DNA of 64,000 bases from assembly GCA_000002435.2 (NCBI GenBank), contig CM018791.1. One strand, given 5' to 3'. Shown here one piece after another: positions 11,301 through 46,260 of this stretch; position 1 is the stretch's first letter, and every line of letters starts with the position of its first letter. The position numbers and the translations under genes are program-made. This stretch comes from Giardia intestinalis (taxonomy: Eukaryota). Below the pieces are notes generated by a model that searched no databases, was not told the origin of the DNA, and worked only from the letters and a program-made list of their open reading frames with translations.

Positions 11301-14300
11301 CCGTGTTACACAGACACCAATCGAATGAAAATAATAGATAGTTATACCGCACAGAAAGTTCTTTCAGCTTTCCTTGCAAAATTCGAAGCAGGTAAAGATC
11401 GTGTGTGGCCTTACTTATGTCTGTGTTCTGAACATATGGCCGTAACTCATCTGGTAGCTTGCGGCACTTCTTGACCATAAGCCAGAGTATCTGTAGGAAA
11501 GTAACGGAGGCCCGTAGGATAGTGCTAACGGGAAGAGAACGATCCTTAGTTGTCATAAGGAGATATGTGCGAATAATATTCTCATACATCTCCAAGGGCG
11601 TTGTCCCAAGTCCCACACCAATGGACATTATAATCTCGATCAGAAGCTGCCTGTTGTGTTCTGGAATCAGAGTCTCAAAGTCACTGACAAGGGACTCGAT
11701 CTTCTGTTGCTCTACGCTATCGGTGACTAGCCCCGACACCATAAAGTTACTCGACATCAGGGCAGACAGTATAGTATGCTCCTTCATGCTTATGCCGGAC
11801 ACCGGATCCTGAAGAAATACCGCAAGTAGATCCTGTTGGCCAGCCTCTCTCTGAGGGATATACATGTAATTGACTAAGTACCTTAGAAAGAAGGAATCTA
11901 AATCTGTGTGGTCATCGGGGAAACGATAAGGCTCATAAATATAATCGAACAGTCCCCCGTGTAGATATGTTCCGCCAACTACAAGAAACCTCTCGGCCAT
12001 GTGGAGACGGGCTCGTTGTTTTGGAGTACTGTCGCTTTGTTCGCCTAAGCTAAGGTAGCTCCCATCAATCGGCGTTGATTGGTCACGCGACGCAGTGGAA
12101 GGTAACTCGCTAGAAGATCCTTGGGGCAATGGTACAAAGTCCCCCAGTGCAACTGAGAGAGTGTTTTGCACTTTGGAGAAGGCTATCTGGGGGTAGAAGA
12201 TGCTGTTCTGGTTGTCCATGGGATAGGCCCGCATGAGCAGCATCCTAATGGTTCTAAGCACCACATGTAGGAGAACTTTCGTAGGAATTGGAGCAAGCCC
12301 TTGGAGCGTCGCTTGAGGTAGCAACGCGGGAGTGCTTGTAGTTTTAGAATAGATAGCATTATCCTTAAATAAGTCCAACTGGATCTTGCTTGTGGCAGGA
12401 GTTAGAACCATACGGTTATAGGTTTCTGCGATCATATGCGCTGATAATACAGAATTAAGTGCAGGAGACGTGCTGGCACCGTTGTCCACTACCGACGGCT
12501 GCACCAGAGAATTGCTTTTATCCTGGTGTCCTGTGCGCTCTACCAGTCCCGGATGAGTAGAACTAATAGAAGACAGATCCAGTGAGTTCATTAGTGGCGA
12601 GTCATAGATATGAAGATTGGCCGTCGAGAACCGCTCCACATAGAGATTCTCAGTTGCCGGAAGCTGCTTGAGGGAGTCCTGTTCTAACCCGTTGTTTGTA
12701 ATGCTTACTGATGACGTATATCGGAGACTGCATTCCGCAGCTGGAGCCTCATCTGTGGCTTCAAGCTGGGGCTTCATTATAGAATGAGGATAGGGATGGA
12801 CATTGGCAATCCCATAGCGGCGTTGTTCGAAGGGTCGCGGCCTATTGCTTGTTGCACTAGCAGATGGTGAACACAACTTTTGCATAAAGGTCTCAGATAT
12901 ACTATTGCACAAGACTTTGGGCGCGCCATCTTCTGAGGCAGACTGTATTAACGCGAGATAGTCCTGATTTGCTGATATTTCATAATGATAGACACCAAAA
13001 GCTAATCGGTAAATCCATGAATAGTCACAGGAAAAGAGCGTGGTGAAAGAATCCACTGTGAGAAGGCCATCTTGGGCATACGCGTGAACGTACTGATTCA
13101 GTAGTGTAGTGTCCACCAGCGCTAGAGGCGAGCTCATTGAGATGGTACGGATCTTTGCGCGAACCAGTCTGTGGATGTAGACGAGCTGAGGAGTAAATTG
13201 TATGGTACCTAAGTCGGTCAAGGCATGAGCAACGCTGAACTCCAACGTGCTGAAAGTCCTGAAAAGCTCTTGGCAAAGATCTGGTCCTTGCGTCCAACGC
13301 AGAGGTAAAGCTACGGAGTCTTCGTTCTCTAGGTAAAGCGAGATAAGCTGAGGAACATTAGTGAAAAAGTGGTAAATGAGCAGGTTATCAGCAATGACGT
13401 TTGTAGAGCTATATAAGCTTCCCTTGAAAAGATACTCGTTGGACCTACATAATTCGCTAGTATGTAAGAGCTTGCACGGGTGAACTCCATTATACGCTAG
13501 AATTATGCTACTAAATTGTAATAGAAGATGTAAATAACAAGGCGATTCAGGACCCAAGACTAAAGAGTGGCCATAGAGGAAGGTGTGCTTAAGCATAAAC
13601 GCCAAAAAAGAAGCGTCGTCCTTCAGCGTAGATGCAGTATATGAGTACTCATGTCCTCTGGGCCCCCTGGGATCAAGCAGAAAGGCGGGAATGTCGGCAA
13701 GAAGCAGACGAAGGATGACGTAGTATTTAAAGAATATAGAGTTATATCCTAGGGAAGCGAACACGAGGTTGCTGTCGATTGTCTTCAGAAGTGTGTGAAG
13801 CACTGTGCCTGTAATGTCGTACATCTTCAGCCAGTTCTCTGAAAAGACTTTCTTGCATAGGTTGCAGTGACGAAGAAGCCCTCGTAAGGACGAGTAAATG
13901 GGGTATAACGTGTACGGAATGGCAAAGTCCATGGCTGCACATATTGTTTTGTGCCTAAACAGCGCATATGTCTTGGCTAATGCCCGAGAGTACTCTGTCA
14001 CCGTGGACTGCAGTGTATTCTTTTTGATATGCGCAGAAAAGAAGCTTGTCAAGATGTGCAGTACAGCCCTGTTTCCTATGCGATCAAAGGGGTGGCTTGT
14101 CTGGCAAGAGGTGCTCAGCTTTCGTTGTAAAGACATGAACTGTATGTGGATGCTCTCTTGACCGTCTAAAGATGCGACTGTTGTATATAACAGATGGTTC
14201 AATAGCTCACAAACCGCCCGGCCGTAAAGAATATACTCATACCTATATACTAGATGCCCGTACTCATTGGCGATGTCGCTTCTTGTCGTTTTAGCAAAGT

Positions 14301-29972: not shown

Positions 29973-31480
29973 TTATGATGCAATAACAGTGATGGCGACA
30001 GCAGCTATTACAATCAGTATAATTGGCACAGAGACTACCGCTGTCGTGGCGCTTTTCAACCTCTTTTCCAGTTTCTTCGATGCACTGCAGATACCATGTT
30101 CGTCTAAGCTGTACCCATCAAAGCATTTAACACATTTATCATCTTTGCATTCTCTGCAACTTATTTCATACTCATACATGCACGTACCGTAGCTTGTTAA
30201 ACAATAACATTCTTCACACTGTAAGCACCTACCGCTTCCAGAGAGAATTCTGCGCCGTTCACAAGCCTCTAAACTACAGCTCCTCACATCACTAAGGCGC
30301 GTACCTGGATTACGCTTTGTACACTATCCATTTTGACAACATTCACAATTATAATTTAGATAGCAGTCGCTGTAACCATGCGTAGGATAAGTTATCATAC
30401 AAACTCCAGGAAGACACGTAGTGCATCCAACACCATCTGCGTAAGACGCACATCTCAGAGGTGTTAGTGATATACAACCAAAAAAGGTAAAAAAACACAA
30501 TTTGCCGTGCATTTAGTACACTTCCTTCCACTGGAGCACTCAGCGCATCCTAGTGTCTCTTTACGCTCACATATTCCATAGGCAGCAAGGCAATACTCTA
30601 CTTCACACTGTGCGCAAGTTCTTTGGTCGGCGCACAACATGCAATGCAGATTTTCTTTTCCAGTACAGGCTAAAGTTCGTAGGTCAAAACAATAACCCTC
30701 ATCACACTCGGTACAATACCCTTCTCCTGCACAAAATGCACAGTGAATAGGAATGTTGACAAGTTATACACATGTTGCTCCATAAGTTGAGTTTTCTAAA
30801 TAGTAACTATCATTATATTGAATACATCTCATTTCACTCCATTGGTAGGTACAATGAGCACAAGCATCGGGACACTTAGTGCATACACCATCAGAATTTA
30901 AGCCATAGCCTGTCACGCACTCCGCACATCATGCATCCCGGACAAGATAAGCAATTCAGAGATTCCTTTAATACGTATTTTTGCTGCTGTTAAGGCAATA
31001 TCTATCCTGACATTGGGTGCATATTCCGCTATTAGGACAACGCCTACAGGATATCTTGCTTAAACGCTTACAAGTGTTGTCACTGATGAGACAGTATCCA
31101 CTTATACATTTGTACACACAATGTTTCCAGGGCAAACTTCACAGTTAAAGGATTCCCTCGCAATACCTTTTCCAGCACTGCTTTTGCATCTGTTCTCTGG
31201 ACAAGGATCCAAGGCAGAGAGTATTGACTCTCCTACTCTGAACGACAGATCTTCTTTGCAGACTCCTTGATTCATCCTGCATCCTTCCCTACATGCCATG
31301 CATCTACTTCTGGCCTACACACCGCAATGTGGTCCACACAAAGTATCGTTTTCACTATTCTCCAAAACCTATGTGCACACCCAGATACCCTCATCGTTCA
31401 TCATGGGTGTCCCCTTTGGACGTTTCTGAACACACTCTGAGTTACCAAGGAGGTCGAGAAAATAGCCATCGATACATCTA
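29973..31480 (-). pseudogene. Degenerate high-cysteine membrane protein (HCMP/VSP-like) gene broken by frameshifts and stops
   Basis: The minus strand reads Cys-rich CxxC/GYC-type peptide in shifting frames across about 1.5 kb (ORFs 31102-31299, 30324-30531, 29973-30287). The last piece ends with a single TM helix and a short tail that is not CRGKA. Confidence 0.5.
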
Positions 31481-33192
31481 AGGCAGACAGTTCCCAAAGG
31501 ATTGCAGAGCTCACAATGCGAGATATCTAGACATAGAGTCGACCTTCCAGCTGATTCGGACAGACATCAGTAACATAGTACGTGAGCAACATCAATCCAA
31601 TGGAGAACATGGTCTTTTTAATTTTGATTATACTTATTAAGAATCCAAATCAAATTAGCAAGGGCTCCGGTCAAACGTTGACACTAAAATCAATGCTCAA
31701 GCTTGTGGCCTCTCTCAGAGACTTGTGCCGGATCTGCTTCCTCCGCGGGTATAGGATCAGATATCTAGATATCCTATGTTCGTCTGCCCTATAATGCCTG
31801 TAGTGTTATAATTTATTACCGATCTACTTTGTCTGCTTGTCTAGCTGTGCTTCACAAATAGACACGGCGTTCGATAGGGATTTTTTTAACAGCGTGTCAT
31901 AATAGTCGCTACTGATTGCAATCCTACACTGTGGTGATTGTGCTTCCTTTGGTCAAATACCGTGTGTAAGAATTCTGCATTAAGGCTAAAACTATATAGT
32001 AGAGATTTCTATAAGGTTGTCTTGTACAATCCACACTCAAAGAATGAGATAGTATCAGCTTCACTTTATATCATATCCGTAGGTGTATCTGGCACCTAAG
32101 GGCTTTGAAAGACTCTTTGATTGTCAAAAATAATCATCTGACAATCACTTGACTATTGGAGCATGTAATTAGTGTAAATAGTGTATATTTCATTTTCATG
32201 ATTTGAAAGGTATTTAGAATACGTTTTAAAGCAGCAACTCTTTTAAATTAGAAAGATATTTTGCTGATTTTGGTTTGACGTATATCACGACAGTCACTCT
32301 GCTGTGCGCACTGTGAATTGCAAACCCCACAGCCTCGAAGCGTTCTGGAGACCAAAGCAGAATTACTCTCGCATTGGTAATAGGGGACCTTGGAGTCCCT
32401 ATAGTAGTAAGCTTTCCTTTCAGAAGCCATCCCTTATGTTAATTAACTGTAATCAGCTACACTATGCATGTTTCAATACTCAACTGAGTCTTCATGTATG
32501 ATCAGGTCAATCTCTGCAGTTAGATAGGCATTTAATAGCACCTGGTGTACTCTCAAGCTTTACACAATCTAATAGTTAATACCACAACATTTGTCAAGCC
32601 TGTGAAAACATTGAAGAACCCACTTTTCATAGACGCTTTTCTACAACCGTTAATGATTTGATCAATACTCACTATAACGTCCCTCTACTACTGTACACCT
32701 GCTGTAATATAAATTTAGTATGACAAAAGCTACCGATGAATGTTGTATATGAGTAGACATCCTCACTCCTTCACCACATCTTTTTTATTGGCAGAGGCTC
32801 GGTCCTTAAGTGAGAGTACTAGTCTATTTCATCCTTGTTATAGAGAAAGTGTAAGCATTATTGCAAACCCAGAGATTGTAATTGACAGGCATATACTACC
32901 TCCATGTCTGCACTCTGGATGCAACAACCACAGCGCAGCTGCATCTCCGATCATTCTGTGCACGCCTTCTGGCACGGGCAGGTGCGCCGGAGGGGGTGTA
33001 CTGCCCACCGCCGAGAAATGGATGAGCTCCTGGTCGGCCCGCCCCGCCTGGAACTTAGAGACCGCCATTCACGGCCGTGAAGAGAGTTCTCGCAAGTAAA
33101 TCTCTCGGGTTGATTCACACGGCGGGTAACCATCCGGTAGAATTCCGTATTGAATTAACTCGCTTAATTAAAAAGTTAGTATCCACGACAAT

Positions 33193-34065
33193 ATGGTGAG
33201 GCCCTGCCTGACCGTGGAAAATCAGTCAAAGGTGCTGCGCTGGCTTGCCACAGAGATCATAAACGCAATCCATCCAGAGGAGACGGTGGAGGACCTTCTT
33301 GCAAACCCGTGTCTGCTCCACTCGTACATGCTCAAAACATCCGTGGACTGGCATTGGATCTCTAACGAGGTTGGCGTGGACGAGAAGAAGGTTTCTCGTT
33401 GGTACTATGAAACGCACCTGCGCCACATCCTAACTATAAAGATGACTAACGAAGACCGTGGAGAGATTCGCAAGATTATCATCAATTGGATCCGCTGCCA
33501 GCAAGTTCCAGACGAGCGGCTTTACCAAGCAATTCATGAGAAGTTTGGAAAGAAGTACTCGCGTCAAGAGCTACGGATGACGTACTACAATATGCTTAAC
33601 AGTCGTTGCATACGGGCCGTCCTTACTGAGTGCAATATTCAGCGTCCGACAAGGCGGAGAAGGCCTCCTGAAACAGAGCGTGCAGGGCTATCTTCCTCGA
33701 CCGTCCTTCACATACCCGGGTATGCTTCCGGTCCTCAACCAGCCCCCTTAGACCATAGAAAGTTGTCCCAGTCAAGTACTCACAAGTATTCTCCAGAAGC
33801 AGCCTCTTTCTCTCAGATTGACGTCAAGGCAGAAAGTGGACTGAATAACGATATTCCAGATGAACCCGTTACCTTTAGTCCTCTTGCATTCCAGAGCATT
33901 GCCCAACAGCAACCGTACATTAAGCTACTCAATCTACAGTCAGTCCCGCTCTCCCTCGATATTAACGGCCAATTAGCATGCATCCCCCTAATCATAGTTG
34001 AGCCAGGAGCCAACATCTGGTCCATTACTCCCAATGAGGAGCCAGTGGGAGGCGCTGGACAGTAG
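33193..34065 (+). CDS. Hypothetical protein with a tandem Myb/SANT-like domain (IR-L copy)
   Basis: 290-aa ORF with two Trp-spaced repeats: DWHWISNEVGVDEKKVSRWYYETHL and INWIRCQQVPDERLYQAIHEKFGKKYSRQELRMTYYNML. These resemble W..IA..LgR...C..rW...L Myb repeats. It is followed by a basic RRRRPP stretch. Confidence 0.55.
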   Translation: MVRPCLTVENQSKVLRWLATEIINAIHPEETVEDLLANPCLLHSYMLKTSVDWHWISNEVGVDEKKVSRWYYETHLRHILTIKMTNEDRGEIRKIIINWIRCQQVPDERLYQAIHEKFGKKYSRQELRMTYYNMLNSRCIRAVLTECNIQRPTRRRRPPETERAGLSSSTVLHIPGYASGPQPAPLDHRKLSQSSTHKYSPEAASFSQIDVKAESGLNNDIPDEPVTFSPLAFQSIAQQQPYIKLLNLQSVPLSLDINGQLACIPLIIVEPGANIWSITPNEEPVGGAGQ

Positions 34066-36684
34066 CGTTCTTTGGTATTGCTCTTCTAACTCATGATAAA
34101 GGATTTGCCGCCTTTTATCTTGCAGAAGACTAGACTTATCTGTACCCCACACTTGATTGCAGATGCAGCAGGACCATGTGCAGGCCATGAAGGTCACGCA
34201 TTGACAAAGCAAACTGGAATTATTCACAGAGGTGGTTTTTGGCAAACTTGTAATCTAGTGGCACGTCATCTTTGGGCTAAGTTGCCTAACTTCTAATCGT
34301 ATATCTACGGCTTCCCTATTTACGCGGTTCTTTGCAGGAGCTAGACCTACTGAAGCATACTTAGCACATAATTCCGCAGATGAGGATACGCGATAATATT
34401 ATCAGCATCCCAATCTCATTCTTGTCAATAACGAATGTATCGATCCACAGATGCTAGTTTCTATCAGCCGAATTAGACTCGCTTAGCAGCCCGTAGAGAT
34501 GATGTAGCTCACCACCGAAGTACTTCCACATCTGCTTTTTTCCGTTTTAGACATAAAGTTGGAACTCATTATTTACCCCGTCAATGATTTTCTGCGTTCA
34601 CTGATGGGTGTATATTATTCTATATTGTCAGTTATCTAGGGACCTCTTTCATAGGAGCGCCACATCAACCCCCTTTATGTTCCTCTTACATTTTATTATG
34701 TGCTTTACATCTTCTTGTCTATCAATATTCACACCCCCATGGATATGCCAGATACATATCTGTATCATATGCTACTGTGATCATAGGTTTGTTGTAAATA
34801 AGGGTGTGATCGGTACCACCACAGAACTCGTTAAACCCTGTCTGCCTTGAGAGTACGCTAATGGGACTACATGCTCAATCTGAGCAGATGTCTGTGGGCT
34901 TGTGTGCTAGCTGGAATAAGATAGGTGACTACTCTGTATGATCATCCTGTTATCATGATTAGGTAGCCGCGAAAGATTAGACGTCATTGCAGGAGCAGAC
35001 AAGGCACTAGGACAGCGATTTGCTTTCCAAGGATGACGTGGATTAATAGGTTAGTAGGCAGTTCTTGGATGCAGGAGTATTAGTGGATTTGTAGACTCGC
35101 GTAGTTATGCATACAGGTCATGGTAGGGGCTCTGGTAATTCTCTGATGGTGGCCCACTTTGGCAAGAGCTCAGCTGGGAAAGGCAAGGCGCTGGACGAGG
35201 ACGCGGAGAAAGTTCGGCACCCCGTGTTCCCACGACGTCTCCGATCGCAGTACTGGCGGGGCCTGACGGCGCTTCTCTTCTTAATTCGGAACGAGTTAAG
35301 GAGTTTCCGCCGTAGGATGGCCGAACTGGCGGCTGAGGGAGCTGTGCGATGTGTCAGAGATTGTTAGAGATTCATACTGTATATTGTGCAATGGCTAACG
35401 TGTATGGGTGTCCCACCGAAGACCCGGTGAAGGATGGCACCGGAGATGAGACAGGATGACCCCTGGTGGAGGAGACCACGGTGCGGGCTTGCCTGCAGAT
35501 GCCGTGGCTAAAATCTCAGCCCGTCCAGGAATCTAACAGAGATTATGCAGCCGGACACTGGGACCTACCGGAGAGCCGCATCGCCCCTGCACGAGCCAGC
35601 AAGCACTGCCTTCGACCCGACCACAGTTGGGAACGCTCATGTCCGTGGATGCCGTCGGTCAGGTCCCTGAAGACCACCCTGCTCACAGCCCCAGGGATCC
35701 CTCTGCAGACTCTGATTTCTATATCCCTGGGGTAGATGTTTGCGGATAGCGGCACAGGGCTCAGCAGAACCGCCAGAAGATCCGCAGCACACTGTCATTA
35801 ACTATAAACGTCTTGCGGTATTCATTCCATGGCTAAGCCACCAATAATGGCACTGGAACTGGAGTAAGACACTTCTAGGGTGCGACTACAGGACCGTGGA
35901 GGAGCTTCCTTCCCACGAAGGAGACCCTGCAGCTAGGGCGTGGTCCATCAACGCTTAGAACTGCACACCTTGGTAGAAGCAGAGCCAAGCCCACACTTAG
36001 AAATCGATGGCTGCCCTCTTGGACCCCGCACATGGTAATAGCTATAGAAAAGAGCTTGGGCAAGGAGATCACGCGGACCAGGTGTACCCGGACTGAGAAG
36101 CGTCTACTTCATCAAGTAACGGTAACCGGTCTATGCACACAGACCATGTTTGGCGGCAAGCTCCCCTGTAGCTCATGTATACACTGCGAACCGCTGCCTA
36201 GAGGCTTGCGTTGGAGATGCTGCAAGACACTAATGGTTGAAAGGTGTGACTAGCCGTTCTTCTAGATATCGTCTCTTTGGATGCGCCGGGTACCTAAGGC
36301 GATAGTCCAGCGCTGCACGCCTTGACTGCCACGGGCCTTGTGCATAGCCGACCAGGTGCCCGACACACGCCGCTTGGGAGTGCCCAGACCACACGGTGCC
36401 GTAATCGGGCTGCTAAGGTGCGAGAGATGGTGCACAGAGGCGCATATCAGAGCCAAGAGTCTGTGTGTCGCCTGCCTCTGGGTGGAATAGTTGTACAATA
36501 GTAGGGGGTGCTCATTGCCATACAGAAGCGGGCACGGCAAAACATGGAGGCGCGGTCCTACCGCAGGATTCGACGGATGCTCGGAGACAGGTGGTCCAAC
36601 GGTTTTATGGAATGACGGCGCAACGGCCATGGAGTGGGCAGGTGCAATAGGCGATGCGTTTACTACCTAAGTACACAGCTAAGT

Positions 36685-36726
36685 CTACGCCTTCCCCCTG
36701 CACAGGAACCACCAGCAGAGGAAGCC
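36685..36726 (-). pseudogene. Orphan VSP 3' fragment (…GFLCWWFLCRGKA, stop and poly(A) signal) at the inner end of IR-L
   Basis: The minus strand encodes the invariant VSP tail and the downstream ACTTAGGTAGTAAAC motif. Upstream of the arm boundary the sequence is not VSP-like. Confidence 0.75.
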
Positions 36727-36987
36727 GACGAGCACAGTGACAGCAATGTACAGGAATGCATCCCGAACAATCATTCCACAAGAGAGGTGCGGTCTGAGTC
36801 TAGCCTCAACTGGTCCTATTTCTATGGAAGTCAGGAGGAACTGCACTGTCAGCTGGCCTCCGGTGGGCGTACTCCTATCTCGTCCTTCTCCAGTCCAACT
36901 GATCAAGGAGAGTAAGAGCGGCTGTCTCTTACTGCTCGCGGTAACACATCAGCCTGACGGAAGAGCAGTGGCATACGAACCCGGCTA

Positions 36988-39804
36988 ATGTTGGTAGGAT
37001 TTCTCTTAGTTTTTGTGGTAACACAGGCCAACTGCGCACAAGAGCTGACCCAGGCAGGCTGCAAGACGTGTGTCGGGGCAGACGCCGCCCAGACGTGTAC
37101 GGAGTGCACAACTTCTGGACACAAGGTACAGCTCGATAAAAGAAGCTGCGGCCCCACCTGCCCGGCGCACTCCACGGCCAGCTCGAACGTCTGCGAGTGC
37201 GACCAGGGATACACGCCCAACGCCGGGAAGACCGCGTGCGAGCCCAATCCCAGCGCGGGATGCGCACAAGAGCTGACCCAGGCAGGCTGCAAGACGTGTG
37301 TCGGGGCAGACGCCGCCCAGACGTGTACGGAGTGCACAACTTCTGGACACAAGGTACAGCTCGATAAAAGAAGCTGCGGCCCCACCTGCCCGGCGCACTC
37401 CACGGCCAGCTCGAACGTCTGCGAGTGCGACCAGGGATACACGCCCAACGCCGGGAAGACCGCGTGCGAGCCCAATCCCAGCGCGGGATGCGCACAAGAG
37501 CTGACCCAGGCAGGCTGCAAGACGTGTGTCGGGGCAGACGCCGCCCAGACGTGTACGGAGTGCACAACTTCTGGACACAAGGTACAGCTCGATAAAAGAA
37601 GCTGCGGCCCCACCTGCCCGGCGCACTCCACGGCCAGCTCGAACGTCTGCGAGTGCGACCAGGGATACACGCCCAACGCCGGGAAGACCGCGTGCGAGCC
37701 CAATCCCAGCGCGGGATGCGCACAAGAGCTGACCCAGGCAGGCTGCAAGACGTGTGTCGGGGCAGACGCCGCCCAGACGTGTACGGAGTGCACAACTTCT
37801 GGACACAAGGTACAGCTCGATAAAAGAAGCTGCGGCCCCACCTGCCCGGCGCACTCCACGGCCAGCTCGAACGTCTGCGAGTGCGACCAGGGATACACGC
37901 CCAACGCCGGGAAGACCGCGTGCGAGCCCAATCCCAGCGCGGGATGCGCACAAGAGCTGACCCAGGCAGGCTGCAAGACGTGTGTCGGGGCAGACGCCGC
38001 CCAGACGTGTACGGAGTGCACAACTTCTGGACACAAGGTACAGCTCGATAAAAGAAGCTGCGGCCCCACCTGCCCGGCGCACTCCACGGCCAGCTCGAAC
38101 GTCTGCGAGTGCGACCAGGGATACACGCCCAACGCCGGGAAGACCGCGTGCGAGCCCAATCCCAGCGCGGGATGCGCACAAGAGCTGACCCAGGCAGGCT
38201 GCAAGACGTGTGTCGGGGCAGACGCCGCCCAGACGTGTACGGAGTGCACAACTTCTGGACACAAGGTACAGCTCGATAAAAGAAGCTGCGGCCCCACCTG
38301 CCCGGCGCACTCCACGGCCAGCTCGAACGTCTGCGAGTGCGACCAGGGATACACGCCCAACGCCGGGAAGACCGCGTGCGAGCCCAATCCCAGCGCGGGA
38401 TGCGCACAAGAGCTGACCCAGGCAGGCTGCAAGACGTGTGTCGGGGCAGACGCCGCCCAGACGTGTACGGAGTGCACAACTTCTGGACACAAGGTACAGC
38501 TCGATAAAAGAAGCTGCGGCCCCACCTGCCCGGCGCACTCCACGGCCAGCTCGAACGTCTGCGAGTGCGACCAGGGATACACGCCCAACGCCGGGAAGAC
38601 CGCGTGCGAGCCCAATCCCAGCGCGGGATGCGCACAAGAGCTGACCCAGGCAGGCTGCAAGACGTGTGTCGGGGCAGACGCCGCCCAGACGTGTACGGAG
38701 TGCACAACTTCTGGACACAAGGTACAGCTCGATAAAAGAAGCTGCGGCCCCACCTGCCCGGCGCACTCCACGGCCAGCTCGAACGTCTGCGAGTGCGACC
38801 AGGGATACACGCCCAACGCCGGGAAGACCGCGTGCGAGGTGGCCTCTAACACGCAGTGTAATACTCCCAACTGCAAGATCTGTGATAACCCCAAAACAGA
38901 CAATGAAATCTGCACTGAATGTAATGACGGCGACTACCTCACTCCAACAAAGCAGTGTACGCAAAGCTGCGGAGCAATAGGAAGCTACTACAACGGAGAC
39001 AAAGTGTGCGAGCCCTGTAATCCTAGCTGTGCTGCGTGCACCACAAAGGGACCAGCGAAGTGCACGCTGTGTCCTCCCGGGAAGAGGCTCCAGTACACAG
39101 ATGAGAACAGTCCATCAAGCGGTACTTGCGTAGATGAGTGCAAGCCCCAGAGTGGAGCTAGCGGATGCGAGACCTGCGGAGCCACCATCGGAGGGACAAA
39201 GTATTGCTCGAAGTGCAGCACATCCACGGAGGTCCCCGTCAACGGAGTCTGTACAGCAGACAATGCCCGCGCGCCCGTATGCTCGAAAAAGGACAATCAG
39301 GGAGGGTGCACTACGTGTGCCAGTGGGTACTTCCGCCAGGACAACGGCTGCTATAAGACTGACAGACAGCCAGGCAAACAGATATGTACACTAGCTGATA
39401 GCAATGGTGGATGTCAGGCGTGTGCCAATGGTCTTCCTCCTAGTTCTTCTGACGTATGCCCCTCGTGTCATTTCACCTGCAAGACATGCTCGACCGCAGA
39501 CACTGCAAATACTTGTACAACGTGTGCAACTGGGTACTATATGGTCGGATCAGCAGCTGGACCATGCACTTCGTGTGACAGCAACAGTGGAAGTGTCAAG
39601 GGAGTTGCTGGCTGCATGAGCTGCGCTCCTCCATCTAATAATCAAGGCTCCGTCCTTTGCTACCTCATAAAGGATACCGGTAGCACCAACAGGAGCGGCC
39701 TCTCCACGGGGGCCATCGTGGGGATCTTCGTCGCAGTCATCGTTGTTGTGGGGGGCCTTGTGGGCTTCCTCTGCTGGTGGTTCCTGTGCAGGGGGAAGGC
39801 GTAG
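36988..39804 (+). CDS. vsp: Variant-specific surface protein (VSP) with a signal peptide, about 8 identical 76-aa Cys-rich repeats, a unique CxxC-rich region, a TM helix and a CRGKA tail
   Basis: The N-terminal signal is MLVGFLLVFVVTQANC. There are abundant CxxC and GGC motifs. The C-terminus is GLVGFLCWWFLCRGKA followed by a stop, then ACTTAGGTAGTAAAC 13 nt later. Confidence 0.92.
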   Translation: MLVGFLLVFVVTQANCAQELTQAGCKTCVGADAAQTCTECTTSGHKVQLDKRSCGPTCPAHSTASSNVCECDQGYTPNAGKTACEPNPSAGCAQELTQAGCKTCVGADAAQTCTECTTSGHKVQLDKRSCGPTCPAHSTASSNVCECDQGYTPNAGKTACEPNPSAGCAQELTQAGCKTCVGADAAQTCTECTTSGHKVQLDKRSCGPTCPAHSTASSNVCECDQGYTPNAGKTACEPNPSAGCAQELTQAGCKTCVGADAAQTCTECTTSGHKVQLDKRSCGPTCPAHSTASSNVCECDQGYTPNAGKTACEPNPSAGCAQELTQAGCKTCVGADAAQTCTECTTSGHKVQLDKRSCGPTCPAHSTASSNVCECDQGYTPNAGKTACEPNPSAGCAQELTQAGCKTCVGADAAQTCTECTTSGHKVQLDKRSCGPTCPAHSTASSNVCECDQGYTPNAGKTACEPNPSAGCAQELTQAGCKTCVGADAAQTCTECTTSGHKVQLDKRSCGPTCPAHSTASSNVCECDQGYTPNAGKTACEPNPSAGCAQELTQAGCKTCVGADAAQTCTECTTSGHKVQLDKRSCGPTCPAHSTASSNVCECDQGYTPNAGKTACEVASNTQCNTPNCKICDNPKTDNEICTECNDGDYLTPTKQCTQSCGAIGSYYNGDKVCEPCNPSCAACTTKGPAKCTLCPPGKRLQYTDENSPSSGTCVDECKPQSGASGCETCGATIGGTKYCSKCSTSTEVPVNGVCTADNARAPVCSKKDNQGGCTTCASGYFRQDNGCYKTDRQPGKQICTLADSNGGCQACANGLPPSSSDVCPSCHFTCKTCSTADTANTCTTCATGYYMVGSAAGPCTSCDSNSGSVKGVAGCMSCAPPSNNQGSVLCYLIKDTGSTNRSGLSTGAIVGIFVAVIVVVGGLVGFLCWWFLCRGKA
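37033..38836 (+). repeat. Tandem array of 7.9 perfect copies of a 228-bp in-frame repeat inside the VSP
   Basis: Period 228 nt. The copies are nucleotide-identical; alternate-frame ORFs are identical in every unit. The last unit diverges at about 38837. Confidence 0.9.
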
Positions 39805-39816
39805 ACTTAGCTGTGT

Positions 39817-39831
39817 ACTTAGGTAGTAAAC
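39817..39831 (+). terminator. Conserved VSP 3' element / polyadenylation signal ACTTAGGTAGTAAAC (contains AGTAAAC)
   Basis: Seen directly 13 nt after the VSP stop codon. The same sequence follows the orphan VSP tail in IR-L on the opposite strand. Confidence 0.7.
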
Positions 39832-42423
39832 GCATCGCCTATTGCACCTGCCCACTCCATGGCCGTTGCGCCGTCATTCCATAAAACCGTTGGACCACCT
39901 GTCTCCGAGCATCCGTCGAATCCTGCGGTAGGACCGCGCCTCCATGTTTTGCCGTGCCCGCTTCTGTATGGCAATGAGCACCCCCTACTATTGTACAACT
40001 ATTCCACCCAGAGGCAGGCGACACACAGACTCTTGGCTCTGATATGCGCCTCTGTGCACCATCTCTCGCACCTTAGCAGCCCGATTACGGCACCGTGTGG
40101 TCTGGGCACTCCCAAGCGGCGTGTGTCGGGCACCTGGTCGGCTATGCACAAGGCCCGTGGCAGTCAAGGCGTGCAGCGCTGGACTATCGCCTTAGGTACC
40201 CGGCGCATCCAAAGAGACGATATCTAGAAGAACGGCTAGTCACACCTTTCAACCATTAGTGTCTTGCAGCATCTCCAACGCAAGCCTCTAGGCAGCGGTT
40301 CGCAGTGTATACATGAGCTACAGGGGAGCTTGCCGCCAAACATGGTCTGTGTGCATAGACCGGTTACCGTTACTTGATGAAGTAGACGCTTCTCAGTCCG
40401 GGTACACCTGGTCCGCGTGATCTCCTTGCCCAAGCTCTTTTCTATAGCTATTACCATGTGCGGGGTCCAAGAGGGCAGCCATCGATTTCTAAGTGTGGGC
40501 TTGGCTCTGCTTCTACCAAGGTGTGCAGTTCTAAGCGTTGATGGACCACGCCCTAGCTGCAGGATCTCCTTCGTGGGAAGGAAGCTCCTCCACGGTCCTG
40601 TAGTCGCACCCTAGAAGTGTCTTACTCCAGTTCCAGTGCCATTATTGGTGGCTTAGCCATGGAATGAATACCGCAAGACGTTTATAGTTAATGACAGTGT
40701 GCTGCGGATCTTCTGGCGGTTCTGCTGAGCCCTGTGCCGCTATCCGCAAACATCTACCCCAGGGATATAGAAATCAGAGTCTGCAGAGGGATCCCTGGGG
40801 CTGTGAGCAGGGTGGTCTTCAGGGACCTGACCGACGGCATCCACGGACATGAGCGTTCCCAACTGTGGTCGGGTCGAAGGCAGTGCTTGCTGGCTCGTGC
40901 AGGGGCGATGCGGCTCTCCGGTAGGTCCCAGTGTCCGGCTGCATAATCTCTGTTAGATTCCTGGACGGGCTGAGATTTTAGCCACGGCATCTGCAGGCAA
41001 GCCCGCACCGTGGTCTCCTCCACCAGGGGTCATCCTGTCTCATCTCCGGTGCCATCCTTCACCGGGTCTTCGGTGGGACACCCATACACGTTAGCCATTG
41101 CACAATATACAGTATGAATCTCTAACAATCTCTGACACATCGCACAGCTCCCTCAGCCGCCAGTTCGGCCATCCTACGGCGGAAACTCCTTAACTCGTTC
41201 CGAATTAAGAAGAGAAGCGCCGTCAGGCCCCGCCAGTACTGCGATCGGAGACGTCGTGGGAACACGGGGTGCCGAACTTTCTCCGCGTCCTCGTCCAGCG
41301 CCTTGCCTTTCCCAGCTGAGCTCTTGCCAAAGTGGGCCACCATCAGAGAATTACCAGAGCCCCTACCATGACCTGTATGCATAACTACGCGAGTCTACAA
41401 ATCCACTAATACTCCTGCATCCAAGAACTGCCTACTAACCTATTAATCCACGTCATCCTTGGAAAGCAAATCGCTGTCCTAGTGCCTTGTCTGCTCCTGC
41501 AATGACGTCTAATCTTTCGCGGCTACCTAATCATGATAACAGGATGATCATACAGAGTAGTCACCTATCTTATTCCAGCTAGCACACAAGCCCACAGACA
41601 TCTGCTCAGATTGAGCATGTAGTCCCATTAGCGTACTCTCAAGGCAGACAGGGTTTAACGAGTTCTGTGGTGGTACCGATCACACCCTTATTTACAACAA
41701 ACCTATGATCACAGTAGCATATGATACAGATATGTATCTGGCATATCCATGGGGGTGTGAATATTGATAGACAAGAAGATGTAAAGCACATAATAAAATG
41801 TAAGAGGAACATAAAGGGGGTTGATGTGGCGCTCCTATGAAAGAGGTCCCTAGATAACTGACAATATAGAATAATATACACCCATCAGTGAACGCAGAAA
41901 ATCATTGACGGGGTAAATAATGAGTTCCAACTTTATGTCTAAAACGGAAAAAAGCAGATGTGGAAGTACTTCGGTGGTGAGCTACATCATCTCTACGGGC
42001 TGCTAAGCGAGTCTAATTCGGCTGATAGAAACTAGCATCTGTGGATCGATACATTCGTTATTGACAAGAATGAGATTGGGATGCTGATAATATTATCGCG
42101 TATCCTCATCTGCGGAATTATGTGCTAAGTATGCTTCAGTAGGTCTAGCTCCTGCAAAGAACCGCGTAAATAGGGAAGCCGTAGATATACGATTAGAAGT
42201 TAGGCAACTTAGCCCAAAGATGACGTGCCACTAGATTACAAGTTTGCCAAAAACCACCTCTGTGAATAATTCCAGTTTGCTTTGTCAATGCGTGACCTTC
42301 ATGGCCTGCACATGGTCCTGCTGCATCTGCAATCAAGTGTGGGGTACAGATAAGTCTAGTCTTCTGCAAGATAAAAGGCGGCAAATCCTTTATCATGAGT
42401 TAGAAGAGCAATACCAAAGAACG

Positions 42424-43296
42424 CTACTGTCCAGCGCCTCCCACTGGCTCCTCATTGGGAGTAATGGACCAGATGTTGGCTCCTGGCTCAACTATGATTA
42501 GGGGGATGCATGCTAATTGGCCGTTAATATCGAGGGAGAGCGGGACTGACTGTAGATTGAGTAGCTTAATGTACGGTTGCTGTTGGGCAATGCTCTGGAA
42601 TGCAAGAGGACTAAAGGTAACGGGTTCATCTGGAATATCGTTATTCAGTCCACTTTCTGCCTTGACGTCAATCTGAGAGAAAGAGGCTGCTTCTGGAGAA
42701 TACTTGTGAGTACTTGACTGGGACAACTTTCTATGGTCTAAGGGGGCTGGTTGAGGACCGGAAGCATACCCGGGTATGTGAAGGACGGTCGAGGAAGATA
42801 GCCCTGCACGCTCTGTTTCAGGAGGCCTTCTCCGCCTTGTCGGACGCTGAATATTGCACTCAGTAAGGACGGCCCGTATGCAACGACTGTTAAGCATATT
42901 GTAGTACGTCATCCGTAGCTCTTGACGCGAGTACTTCTTTCCAAACTTCTCATGAATTGCTTGGTAAAGCCGCTCGTCTGGAACTTGCTGGCAGCGGATC
43001 CAATTGATGATAATCTTGCGAATCTCTCCACGGTCTTCGTTAGTCATCTTTATAGTTAGGATGTGGCGCAGGTGCGTTTCATAGTACCAACGAGAAACCT
43101 TCTTCTCGTCCACGCCAACCTCGTTAGAGATCCAATGCCAGTCCACGGATGTTTTGAGCATGTACGAGTGGAGCAGACACGGGTTTGCAAGAAGGTCCTC
43201 CACCGTCTCCTCTGGATGGATTGCGTTTATGATCTCTGTGGCAAGCCAGCGCAGCACCTTTGACTGATTTTCCACGGTCAGGCAGGGCCTCACCAT
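42424..43296 (-). CDS. Hypothetical tandem Myb/SANT-like protein (IR-R copy, identical 290 aa)
   Basis: The translation is identical to that of 33193-34065. Confidence 0.55.
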   Translation of the reverse strand: MVRPCLTVENQSKVLRWLATEIINAIHPEETVEDLLANPCLLHSYMLKTSVDWHWISNEVGVDEKKVSRWYYETHLRHILTIKMTNEDRGEIRKIIINWIRCQQVPDERLYQAIHEKFGKKYSRQELRMTYYNMLNSRCIRAVLTECNIQRPTRRRRPPETERAGLSSSTVLHIPGYASGPQPAPLDHRKLSQSSTHKYSPEAASFSQIDVKAESGLNNDIPDEPVTFSPLAFQSIAQQQPYIKLLNLQSVPLSLDINGQLACIPLIIVEPGANIWSITPNEEPVGGAGQ

Positions 43297-44039
43297 ATTG
43301 TCGTGGATACTAACTTTTTAATTAAGCGAGTTAATTCAATACGGAATTCTACCGGATGGTTACCCGCCGTGTGAATCAACCCGAGAGATTTACTTGCGAG
43401 AACTCTCTTCACGGCCGTGAATGGCGGTCTCTAAGTTCCAGGCGGGGCGGGCCGACCAGGAGCTCATCCATTTCTCGGCGGTGGGCAGTACACCCCCTCC
43501 GGCGCACCTGCCCGTGCCAGAAGGCGTGCACAGAATGATCGGAGATGCAGCTGCGCTGTGGTTGTTGCATCCAGAGTGCAGACATGGAGGTAGTATATGC
43601 CTGCCAAGACAGCACACGACTTCCCTACAGCTCCTTGGCGTGTCGGCGCGTGAAGACAGAGGGCCAGCCAGGGTGAATGTCGTGGCCGGCCAGCTGCACA
43701 TCAGCTTTAGCTCACGGCCCAGAGAGCATTCAGTCGCCTGTTACCGGACGGGCCTGTCTGGTAGATCGTTGGCCCAGACCGCGGTGTTCGAGTCGTCTGG
43801 GCACATGGGAGAGCCCTGCCTTCGTCTGCTGTGTGTGGTCTCTTCAACGATGCGCAGAATGTGGGTTGCGCGACATCCAGACCGTCGCAGCCTGCGTCTG
43901 GTGGGCCCTGCGCTGTGCCGTGGTTGAGCATGCTACACGCTCTAGACATGACGGTCTCGTCACTGACCAGGCTCCGGCCATTAGCTGCTCCTACCGACCA
44001 CTCTTCGCCAACCACCAAGCAAGCCGGGGTCTCCAGTCC

Positions 44040-44849
44040 TCAACCCTTACTGGGGCTCGCATCAGCGCACCCAGGCACGCCTCCGTAGCCCGCAGGGGGG
44101 AAGCATGGCACGCATGCGAATGCAACGGGCGACCCGAGGAGACCCTGGCCCGTCTGGAGCGGGAGGACGCCAGGCCCAGGAACGACCCCGGGCGGGAGGG
44201 CGAGGACGAGGCACCCCGGCGCGTGCGGGGGCAGAAGCGCAGAGACCGCGCCCGGGGCCACAAAGACCGGCCCCCCGACGGGCGGCACCAGCGGAGGCGC
44301 GGCGCAACCAAGAACGCAGGGGGGCGGGGGAGAGGCCGCCACAGGAGATGCCCCCTCCTCCTGCTTGGCCGCCCTCGGGCCGTATGTGCGGCGCGGCAGC
44401 ACCACCCCGTGCTCCTCCAGGGCGGCGCGGACGTCCTGGGTGCGGAGCGCGTTGTTGTACGTCATCCGCAGCTCCTGGCGCGGATACTTCGCCCCGAAGC
44501 GCTCGTGGACCCTGCGGTAGAAGTCCGGGCCCAGGATGCTCCGGTCCCTGACCCCGGCGATGATCATCGCCTTGATGGCCCTGCGGTCCTCGCCAGTCAT
44601 CTTCACGTTGAGGATGCTCCGCGAGTGCGTCTCGCGGTACCAGTGGTAGATCCTGCTCCGGTCCTCGGACAGGGCGCGGGCGATCTTCTTCCAGTCGATG
44701 GCCGTCCGGAGCACGTGCCGGTGGAGGAGCAGCGGCCGCCGCGCGAGGCTCTCGGCCGTCTCCCCCAGCCGCCGGGCAGCGACGACCTGCTTCGCGAGCT
44801 CGAGCAGAACGGAGGCGCGCGTCTCCGCCGTCATTGCCCCAGAGCCCAT
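44040..44849 (-). CDS. Diverged, GC-rich paralog of the IR-borne Myb/SANT-like protein
   Basis: 269 aa. Alignable blocks include LLHRHVLRTAIDWKKIARALSEDRSRIYHWYRETHSRSILNVKMTGEDRRAIKAMII and ...FGAKYPRQELRMTYNNALRTQDVRAAL, against the 290-aa protein. It lies in a GC-rich segment. Confidence 0.55.
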   Translation of the reverse strand: MGSGAMTAETRASVLLELAKQVVAARRLGETAESLARRPLLLHRHVLRTAIDWKKIARALSEDRSRIYHWYRETHSRSILNVKMTGEDRRAIKAMIIAGVRDRSILGPDFYRRVHERFGAKYPRQELRMTYNNALRTQDVRAALEEHGVVLPRRTYGPRAAKQEEGASPVAASPPPPCVLGCAAPPLVPPVGGPVFVAPGAVSALLPPHAPGCLVLALPPGVVPGPGVLPLQTGQGLLGSPVAFACVPCFPPAGYGGVPGCADASPSKG

Positions 44850-46260
44850 CCGATAGAAGCAGCGATAAAACTAAAAACAGACCAACGAATAATGTGAAAT
44901 TAAATATGTACAGGCCTTGCACAAAAGTTTTAGCGGGTGTTTGTTGCCTGCCTGCCCCGGTCCGTCGGGCGAGCAGGGCGCCCTCACCCGGGCCATCGCC
45001 GCAGTACGAGCTGGCTTAGGCCGCCACACAGAACAGACCGCTTTGCACACGGCGGCGTCGGGGTTGATGTATTGATCGGAGTTTTTTGGTATTGCCGGGA
45101 ACCCCCGCCCTCGGCCACCAGGGAGAGCCGCACTCTGCGCAGCCCCGGTTTGTCTGCATATGCCCAGAGCTCTGCGGAGGCGGGCAGGCTGGGACCGTCC
45201 TCCTCGTTCGGGGCATCGCCGACGACGAGCTGTTGCCTGCGGCCCGCGGGGTCTTCCGCTCTGAGAGGGGCCACCGAGTGTCGTGGGCCGCAGCGCTCTG
45301 CAAGGCCTGCACACGACCAGAGGCTGCCAAGTTTTTTGAGCAACTGGCTCTGGCGCGGATTCTGCGGACACCTGCTGCCGGCCCAGTCTACAGGGGCGCC
45401 CGCGTGTCTACTGTGGCCTGGCGTGCGTTTCTGCGCGTCCTCCTGCGGCGGCTCCCCTCGTGGCGCAGGAAGCCCTGCCTGTCCTCTCCCACCGGGTTCT
45501 CCCGACGTGCTCTCCACCGCACCCAGCCGAGGTTCCAGCGGACAAAGGAGCGGCATGACCCAATCAGTCGCCAGATTACATTGTGCTCTGGAGCTGCGAA
45601 TCTTGCTGGCATCTCATGCGACAGTGGCTCTGGGTGTGCCCGCTCAGCAGCAGCTACCTCATCCACAGAGTGCTGATGCAGATATTATGCGCTACGTATC
45701 AGTGACCACAAGGGCACCGATAGACAGGGTCTCAGCCTCAGTGCACAGCCAAGGTTGCCAAGCATAGCGAGGCTTACATACTGAGCATGGGTCCGTGCCC
45801 CGCGTGGTCTTCTTAAGAACTAGTGCATGAGTGCTCGTGAGACGACGCCCCATATGAGGCGGGCTATCCGTTGTACGCGAAGCACAGCACAGCAGAAGTG
45901 GGTGATGCAGGGACCAGAGGGGGTGCTTCAGCACATCAGTCGTCGGCCCCTCTGCCTTCTGTCGCGCCTGATGGACTCTCCTCTATTATCGCAACTCGGT
46001 CGCGGTTGTCTGAGGAGAGGACTAGGTACTCAGCAGACAATGGAATCGCGTGGCCTGGACGCGATTTCGTGATGGCCAACATGGGTTATCAGGCTGGCTG
46101 TGGTCTGGATATGTGGTACAGCTTCCTTCACTCAAGCAGGTACGTAGCATTTTCACTGGTGTATATTGCACAGCCCCTTGGCACCTGTACCCGAGGCCAA
46201 CACCGCACCAGCTTTCTGATCGCTAGGACTGCCCGGGTGCGGACAAGGTGCTTCGTTCAC

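Follow-up and report, generated by a model that had tools for sequence, protein, structure and literature searches.

A 64,000-nt window of Giardia duodenalis (intestinalis) WB was analyzed around three related genes. Two identical copies of a gene for a 290-aa protein, GL50803_00116968 (116968), lie in the two arms of an inverted repeat (IR) around a variant-specific surface protein (VSP) gene, and a GC-rich paralog for a 269-aa protein, GL50803_0061066 (61066), lies beside the repeat. Our results indicate, with a probability of about 0.6, that all three are members of a family confined to diplomonads, whose small nuclear proteins have a weakly Myb-like domain and probably bind DNA or chromatin, and that the two 290-aa copies came from passive duplication of the repeat arm. 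All coordinates refer to the window unless another locus is named.

The proposed architecture starts with a basic, all-helical N-terminal domain of ~150 aa, continues with an Arg-rich linker that is the probable nuclear localization signal (NLS), and ends in a disordered, fast-evolving tail with a terminal hydrophobic motif. Inside the domain, residues 37-83 would form a divergent Myb/SANT/homeodomain-like three-helix unit, with a third helix (YHWYxETHxR) that probably recognizes DNA. Behind this unit would pack a second bundle of three helices, giving a tandem like that of R2R3 Myb, Cdc5, or Reb1. We infer that DNA or chromatin is most likely what the proteins bind, in both nuclei, and that the tail motif probably recruits partner proteins. 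In the ancestral unit, a 290-type gene and a VSP gene would converge, an arrangement that assemblage E still has as a single copy; assemblage A would have duplicated 3.85 kb of this unit in inverted orientation and so copied the gene passively. The 269-aa neighbor is not a local duplicate; it represents the most distant subfamily and sits on a dispersed, ~2-kb GC-rich block.

The helical domain and its first unit

The 269-aa protein matched the 290-aa protein by BLASTP with an E-value of 6e-41 (42% identity over 149 residues, 6-154), so the GC-rich paralog keeps the domain, as had been expected. AlphaFold modeling from a 16-sequence alignment of the domain gave a mean predicted local distance difference test (pLDDT) score of 86.9 and nine helices, at residues 8-26, 32-37, 39-48, 53-60, 64-83, 86-101, 108-118, 124-135, and 138-146. 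Helices 39-48, 53-60, and 64-83 form unit 1, and helices 86-101, 108-118, and 124-135 form unit 2. The domain of ~150 aa is conserved and all helical, with an isoelectric point (pI) of 9.3-11.0 across the paralogs. A single-sequence AlphaFold model of the full 290-aa protein reached a pLDDT of 50, with the tail disordered at pLDDT <50, and its Foldseek search was uninformative; the alignment-based domain model was used instead.

Sub-threshold Pfam matches among 36 members were to HTH_23 (eight members), Myb_DNA-bind_8 (six), and Myb_DNA-bind_6 (four). When ten members and the consensus sequences were scanned singly, the helix-turn-helix (HTH) and Myb matches were all located at residues 41-88. 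For the consensus, E-values of 6.5e-4 (HTH_23), 0.013 (Myb_DNA-bind_6, profile positions 8-55 of 60), and 0.019 (Myb_DNA-binding) were obtained, Myb_DNA-bind_8 was matched too, and all these matches fell on the same helices. HTH_23 gave the top single Pfam score, 19.9 bits against a cut-off of 24.6, over helix 2-turn-helix 3; Myb_DNA-bind_6 (PF13921) scored 16.1 bits (cut-off 22.9) and Myb_DNA-binding (PF00249) 15.5 bits (cut-off 24.4).

Searching 177,635 PDB sequences with a profile of residues 34-86 retrieved nine matches, five of which were Myb/SANT proteins (MYB21, WER, EAF1, SNAPC4, and an Ada2-like protein). Only this unit 1 sub-profile enriched Myb/SANT proteins in the PDB; whole-domain profiles returned noise and one weak WER match. 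In an hhalign comparison with c-Myb R2R3, residues 51-78 aligned with helices 2-3 of R3 at an E-value of 0.023 and low probability.

The conserved aromatic positions of unit 1 are L42/Y45, the invariant W53, and W70 (present in at least 90% of sequences) with Y71, at spacings of 8-11 and 17-18. Unit 2 conserves Y/F111, F118, and Y131 alone and has no Trp. Alignment of residues 36-84 with residues 84-137 by hhalign gave an E-value of 0.55 and a probability of 0.1%, so the two units are not detectably homologous. The original prediction of two Trp-spaced repeats is therefore not upheld, as W53 and W70 are the only conserved Trp residues. Its broader Myb/SANT-like assignment survives in part: residues 37-83 can be read as a divergent Myb/SANT/homeodomain-like HTH, and what remains of the second repeat is a weak structural superposition alone. 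We conclude that one divergent Myb/SANT/homeodomain-like HTH lies inside a novel nine-helix domain. On the model, this domain may mimic the tandem Myb arrangement; membership of these proteins in the Myb family is not established.

Several points weigh against a Myb-like, DNA-binding protein. The localization evidence comes from episomal fusions in a large screen, the atlas of Hagen et al. 2026 (PMC13322205). A Pfam scan of the 290-aa and 269-aa proteins gave no match even at E <= 10, PDB sequence searches with these proteins gave no significant match, and Foldseek found nothing in the PDB for the alignment-based model at E < 1. The profile and structure searches proposed at the outset thus gave a mixed answer, with a helical model and sub-threshold unit 1 matches on one side and no match at threshold on the other. 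The second unit (84-146) had no Myb or HTH sequence match in the Pfam or PDB profile searches. SANT-type domains, moreover, can bind histones instead of DNA.

A strongly basic domain is typical of DNA-binding Myb proteins and not of the acidic SANT type. The domain described here is strongly basic (pI 9.3-11), and its best-covered Pfam match is Myb_DNA-bind_6. Both points make it rather unlikely that the proteins are nuclear without binding DNA and use a SANT-like or other protein-interaction module for histones or chromatin proteins. The presence of EAF1 and an Ada2-like SANT protein among the PDB profile matches speaks for such a module, and so does the paralog 11149, which was scored 'chromosome', the class of histone H4 (PMC13322205).

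The basic tract that had been noted was located after the domain, at residues 150-163 (QRPTRRRRPPETER); from its sequence, it is probably an NLS. The short C-terminal motif (GQLACIPLIIVE in the 290-aa protein) has the approximate consensus [FLV][AT][YC][IV]P[LFC][ILF] and is shared by nearly all members in Giardia; it lies close to the C-terminus, where it ends the disordered, fast-evolving tail. In the 269-aa protein it occupies residues 236-250 (44100-44144). It may serve to bind partner proteins. In some relatives that are more distant, an acidic motif of the FPWDQL type takes its place at the end.

Family size, localization, and selection

The family is larger than the three members first proposed. 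An exact-sequence cluster look-up gave at least 11 family genes in WB, in at least four subfamilies: 116968 (two copies), 10241 (292 aa), 11149 (289 aa), and seven genes of the 269 type (61066, 60974, d60974, 103981, 137682, 114778, and 112150). These seven are mutually at least 90% identical and are spread over four chromosome records. A further type of 317 aa is present in assemblages E and B (GLP15_4271 and GL50581_1998). Searching 1.84 billion representative proteins with a family profile detected 79 clusters at E <= 1e-3; Giardia members showed E-values from 1e-75 to 1e-30, and the named distant clusters were from Hexamita inflata. A word-indexed search with the broad profile, which supplied this name, returned five proteins. 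The search for further members thus found the family elsewhere in WB, in other assemblages, and in Hexamita, and the retrieved clusters indicate that it is diplomonad-specific.

Both window proteins carry the family signature, consisting of the ~150-aa N-terminal domain, W53, Y68-H-W70-Y, T74, KMT.EDR, and Y.RQELRMTYNN, and all invariant columns of the family alignments are present in both. By domain identity, the nearest paralog of the 290 type is 10241 (63%) and that of the 269 type is 11149 (57%). The 290 and 269 types share 41% and form the most distant pair within Giardia. Local tandem duplication was therefore ruled out as the origin of their adjacency. The 269-type genes 60974 and d60974 are identical copies with accessions KAE8302586 and KAE8302588, and the numbering suggests one gene between them; this hints at a second palindrome like that formed by 116968 around the VSP gene.

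For the localization atlas, WB open reading frames (ORFs) were tagged at the C-terminus with green fluorescent protein (GFP) or mNG, and ~200 bp of native upstream sequence was kept (PMC13322205). The 116968 fusion was found in nuclei and the protein was named 'nuclear diplomonad conserved protein'; GL50803_0011149 was listed as 'nuclear protein' with 'chromosome' localization, a class shared with histone H4 (PMC13322205). These data support an expressed and nuclear 290-aa protein, and the nuclear localization and diplomonad restriction of 116968 are already published (PMC13322205). A literature search by gene ID returned nothing apart from this atlas. In the atlas passages searched, 11149 is a separate entry, marked as hypothetical, and there is no mention of the fold, the family relationships, the VSP linkage, or the GC-rich multi-copy subfamily (PMC13322205).

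Comparison of 116968 between WB and its ortholog in P15 (assemblage E) gave a ratio of non-synonymous to synonymous substitution rates (dN/dS) of 0.109 overall, 0.028 for the domain, and 0.205 for the tail. The domain showed 30 synonymous and four non-synonymous changes. For the 269-type domain, dN/dS was 0.34-0.47. By these ratios the domain is under purifying selection.

The inverted repeat, the VSP gene, and the GC-rich block

The layout of the locus is given in Table 1. It was predicted that each repeat arm encodes the same 290-aa protein and that the third paralog lies just beyond the right arm (IR-R) in the same orientation. Both statements agree with our results: the two ORFs are identical and lie in arms with 100% complementarity, and the 269-aa gene lies 432 nt outside IR-R, on the strand of the 290-aa copy in that arm. 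Its ORF is 100% identical to GL50803_0061066, on a 1.97-Mb chromosome record, and 116968 has KAE8302796 and KAE8302798 as its protein accessions. The 290-aa gene is present twice because it is inside the inverted duplication around the VSP gene. The left arm (IR-L) holds this gene with 311 nt on its 5' side, a non-coding stretch of 2.6 kb, and, at the inner end of the arm, the mirrored 48-nt VSP 3' end. The spacer of 3,024 nt (36733-39756) holds the VSP gene, the final 48 nt of which fall within IR-R. The VSP gene converges with 290-aa copy 2 across a gap of 2,619 nt, and both 290-aa copies are convergent with a VSP 3' end at this distance.

Table 1. Coordinates of the features of the locus, in window positions.
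Feature	Position	Strand	Basis or remark
IR-L arm	32882-36732	.	3,851 nt; inverted-repeat detection
290-aa gene copy 1, GL50803_00116968, in IR-L	33193-34065	+	ORF; exact-sequence match KAE8302796/KAE8302798
HTH-like unit 1, residues 37-83, copy 1	33301-33441	+	AlphaFold helices; sub-threshold Pfam HTH/Myb; PDB profile matches
Second three-helix unit and helix 138-146, residues 84-146, copy 1	33442-33630	+	carries KMT.EDR ... Y.RQELRMTYNN
Basic tract QRPTRRRRPPETER, residues 150-163, copy 1	33640-33681	+	candidate NLS; R155 nearly invariant
Conserved C-terminal short motif GQLACIPLIIVE, residues 259-270 of the 290-aa protein	33967-34002	+	P265 in at least 90% of aligned sequences
VSP gene, 938 aa, eight 228-nt tandem repeats, in spacer	36988-39804	+	Pfam PF03302, E 8e-94
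IR-R arm	39757-43607	.	3,851 nt; 100% complementary to IR-L
290-aa gene copy 2, same sequence as copy 1, in IR-R	42424-43296	-	ORF comparison
Unit 1 in the IR-R copy	43048-43188	-	
Dispersed GC-rich repeat block, 269-aa gene and ~760-810 nt of conserved non-coding upstream sequence	43459-45659	-	inter-locus homology
269-aa GC-rich paralog, GL50803_0061066, one of seven near-identical WB copies	44040-44849	-	ORF; homology
Unit 1 in the 269-aa gene	44601-44741	-	

In P15, the left flank is colinear with the window (MFS transporter, ankyrin protein, and 847-aa kinase). The 290-type gene is single-copy there and is followed after 2.6 kb by a VSP gene encoded on the other strand, and a 600-nt inverted arm fragment was found beyond the VSP 5' end. 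A contig of DH (assemblage A2) has the right flank and a contig of another isolate has the left flank; each enters the arm, in agreement with the same palindrome. The convergent 290-type/VSP pair is thus kept in assemblages A1, A2, and E, and from the single-copy pair of P15 together with the DH contigs we conclude that this unit is ancestral. A literature search for Giardia VSP palindromes returned nothing relevant.

The VSP gene between the arms appears in opposite orientation among isolates (36733-39756; L012 13518-14071; L017 13682-17319). Its 3' end joins IR-R in WB and lies beside the left arm in P15, and in the DH contig the right arm is joined to the VSP upstream region and 5' end. Both spacer orientations leave the VSP ORF intact because the arms contain its last 48 nt. 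The difference reflects either a flip-flop inversion or, in DH, an assembly ambiguity.

At the other family loci, the result was different. The 10241 locus, with an XMAP215-TOG protein and an ankyrin protein as neighbors, the 11149 locus, and the 269-type copy at the kinesin locus (DH and P15) are all free of VSP genes within 10 kb. Of the remaining 269-type copies, that in L005 has a VSP tail 3 kb downstream and that in GS-B (L019) a VSP gene 1.7 kb upstream. The idea that other members would also be VSP-adjacent fails for most of the paralogs examined, and the family is not specific to the VSP palindrome locus to which the original prediction had tied it. On synteny, VSP linkage is real for one subfamily and not family-wide.

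VSP genes are numerous in Giardia, and this abundance makes some adjacency expected by chance; conservation of synteny is, by itself, no proof of function. The 290-type proteins, and perhaps the 269 type, are thus unlikely to be locus-specific regulators acting in cis or near-cis on the neighboring VSP gene or palindrome by silencing, switching, or inversion. The presence of the family in Hexamita and the VSP-free surroundings of 10241, 11149, and the kinesin-locus copy also argue against this role. It would explain the retention of the 290-type gene beside the VSP gene, and it agrees with the conserved convergent pair in A1, A2, and E, the 269-type copies 1.7-3 kb from a VSP gene in L005 and GS-B, the VSP orientation between the arms, in which WB is unlike DH and P15, and the nuclear location of 116968 (PMC13322205). 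Nothing shows that the 290-type proteins control the adjacent VSP gene, and the linkage is, at present, to be read as synteny.

The 269-aa gene belongs to a repeat block of ~2 kb. WB has seven copies of this block, distributed over four chromosomes, and in other isolates it is found at places that are not syntenic. The block showed 94-95% identity to copies elsewhere (L005 and L015) and 82% to P15. Homology between loci covers 45659-44078 and reaches 43459 in L005. The outermost 149 nt of the arms (32882-33030 and 43459-43607) are homologous to L005 11210-11359 and are contiguous with the 269-type block there, which places the outer IR boundary inside the repeat sequence of the block. The 760-nt stretch upstream of the gene was considered as a second gene and rejected, since 1-, 2-, and 4-nt indels between the A and E copies break all frames; it is, for this reason, non-coding. 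Over 44320-45613 (1.3 kb), WB and the syntenic DH copy share 95.8% identity and paralogous copies 95.4-97.6%. That orthologous copies are no closer than paralogous ones fits either exchange between copies or a duplication burst near the A1/A2 split. In L001, at 11149-11375 and ~270 nt 3' of the DH ortholog of 10241, a sequence was observed that matches at 70% the part of the 269-aa gene encoding the G/P/A-rich tail (44078-44335); it may be a tail relic or low-complexity GC-rich similarity only.

The 290-aa gene has a GC content of 0.50 and a third-position GC content (GC3) of 0.56, or 0.63 within the domain. The corresponding values for the 269-aa gene are 0.72, 0.87, and 0.955, and GC3 is 0.43-0.73 in the 16 other ORFs of the window. 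The strong GC enrichment predicted for the third paralog was therefore confirmed, together with its tail rich in G, P, and A. Values for the first (GC1 0.73) and second (GC2 0.56) codon positions indicate that the shift is not limited to third positions, and the 800 nt of non-coding sequence upstream of the gene have 64-67% GC. The shift is old and inherited rather than recent, because 269-type genes in assemblages A (A2 orthologs), E, and B share GC3 values of 0.85-0.95.

Two causes of the compositional difference had been suggested, different ages of the paralogs and GC-biased conversion. The first is wrong because both subfamilies, 290 and 269, are older than the separation of assemblages A, B, and E. 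For the second, substitutions among the A-lineage copies were polarized with P15. Changes from AT to GC were found at 25 of 427 sites and from GC to AT at 61 of 849 sites, for an implied equilibrium GC of ~0.45. Ongoing GC-biased conversion was rejected as a demonstrated cause, as these changes, polarized with a single outgroup at 17% divergence, have no AT-to-GC excess.

The dispersal of the block raises the reading of a domesticated or still mobile module, with an HTH of transposase-type origin and a 269-type block that is a present or former mobile element. Sub-threshold matches to the transposase-type HTH_23, HTH_Tnp_1, HTH_28, and HTH_ABP1_N agree with it, as do the seven occurrences of the block, with its 760-nt upstream stretch, on four WB chromosomes and at non-syntenic places elsewhere, and a reverse-transcriptase gene 6 kb from the DH ortholog of 10241. 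However, no transposase, DDE, integrase, or reverse-transcriptase domain was found in the 36 members, including those of 522-926 aa, and neither terminal inverted repeats nor flanking direct repeats were found around the 269-type block. Assemblages A2 and E have the kinesin-locus copy at a syntenic place, purifying selection acts on the domain, and the HTH matches cannot tell Myb from transposase-type folds. The mobile-element remnant of the original prediction is, on these results, improbable.

It is barely credible that the ORFs arose by chance in repeated or GC-rich DNA or are pseudogenes without expression, and for the 290 type this reading is refuted. In its favor, the GC-rich stretch 44000-45800 yields many long spurious ORFs on both strands, and the DH annotation has no 269-type gene call at the syntenic place. 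Against it, the domain is conserved among assemblages and in Hexamita, with a dN/dS of 0.028 (290 type) or 0.34-0.47 (269 type), and a 116968 GFP fusion under its own upstream region was expressed and nuclear (PMC13322205).

Two further observations concern the surrounding sequence. The many long, overlapping ORFs on both strands of the GC-rich stretch, among them 43677-44897 (+), 44062-44922 (-), and 44937-45767 (+), are most plausibly artefacts of a high GC content, which leaves few stop codons, and not genes. At 29973-31300 (-), a run of short CxxC-rich ORF fragments was observed, one of them with a transmembrane tail; P15 has an intact 578-aa gene there, and the fragments are probably a degraded gene for a cysteine-rich membrane protein in WB.

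Significance and comparison with known systems

About 40% of the Giardia proteome is without known function (PMC13322205), and few Giardia transcription or chromatin factors are characterized. At least 11 WB genes annotated as 'hypothetical' now form one family with a probable Myb/homeodomain-like HTH, and two of them were previously localized to nuclei or chromosomes. The outcome is a modest but useful annotation, that of a lineage-specific, nuclear, probably DNA-binding family, which supplies concrete candidates for DNA-binding assays and chromatin immunoprecipitation. The linkage of the 290 type with VSP genes and the difference in VSP orientation are experimentally testable for their relevance to antigenic variation. 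The seven-copy subfamily with GC3 of ~0.95 offers a clean case for the study of concerted evolution and base-composition drift in a binucleate parasite.

A bolder extension, to which we attach very little weight, is that 116968 is a sequence-specific DNA-binding factor acting on VSP-linked repeats. It would set silencing marks on the arms, or would promote or limit inversion and gene conversion, and the 269-type copies would mark further sites of VSP-associated rearrangement. If so, Giardia would have a dedicated, lineage-specific DNA-binding family for antigenic variation.

Among known systems, the family was compared with tandem Myb proteins (c-Myb, WER, Cdc5/CEF1, Reb1/TTF1, SNAPC4, and Trichomonas MYB21). 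Like these, unit 1 is, on the model, a three-helix unit with W53 in helix 2 (W-x-x-I-A) and an aromatic W70/Y71 in helix 3, 17 residues past W53. The proteins are also basic, have on the model a second three-helix bundle directly after the first, and are located in nuclei or on chromosomes. Unlike tandem Myb proteins, the family has no threshold match, and Leu or Tyr stands where the canonical triad has its first Trp. The aromatic spacing between helix 2 and helix 3 is 17-18 compared with 19 in Myb, and the second unit has neither the Trp triad nor sequence similarity to Myb. Extra helices lie at both ends of the nine-helix domain, a long one at residues 8-26 and another at 138-146, and the domain has no global structural match (Foldseek E >= 1).

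With the transposase, CENP-B, and Abp1-type HTH (HTH_23, HTH_28, HTH_Tnp_1, and HTH_ABP1_N), the family shares the helix 2-turn-helix 3 segment that gives the top Pfam score, and one subfamily here is multi-copy and dispersed. In contrast to such elements, it has no catalytic domain and no element termini, and its loci are syntenic between assemblages. With SANT proteins (EAF1, Ada2, and CHD1 SANT-SLIDE), it shares helices 1-2 (NP..L..YV....W..IA), which align to EAF1 and Ada2-like SANT, and the reported presence of the paralog 11149 on chromosomes (PMC13322205). It differs from them in its strongly basic domain and in having no other chromatin-remodeling domain in the protein.

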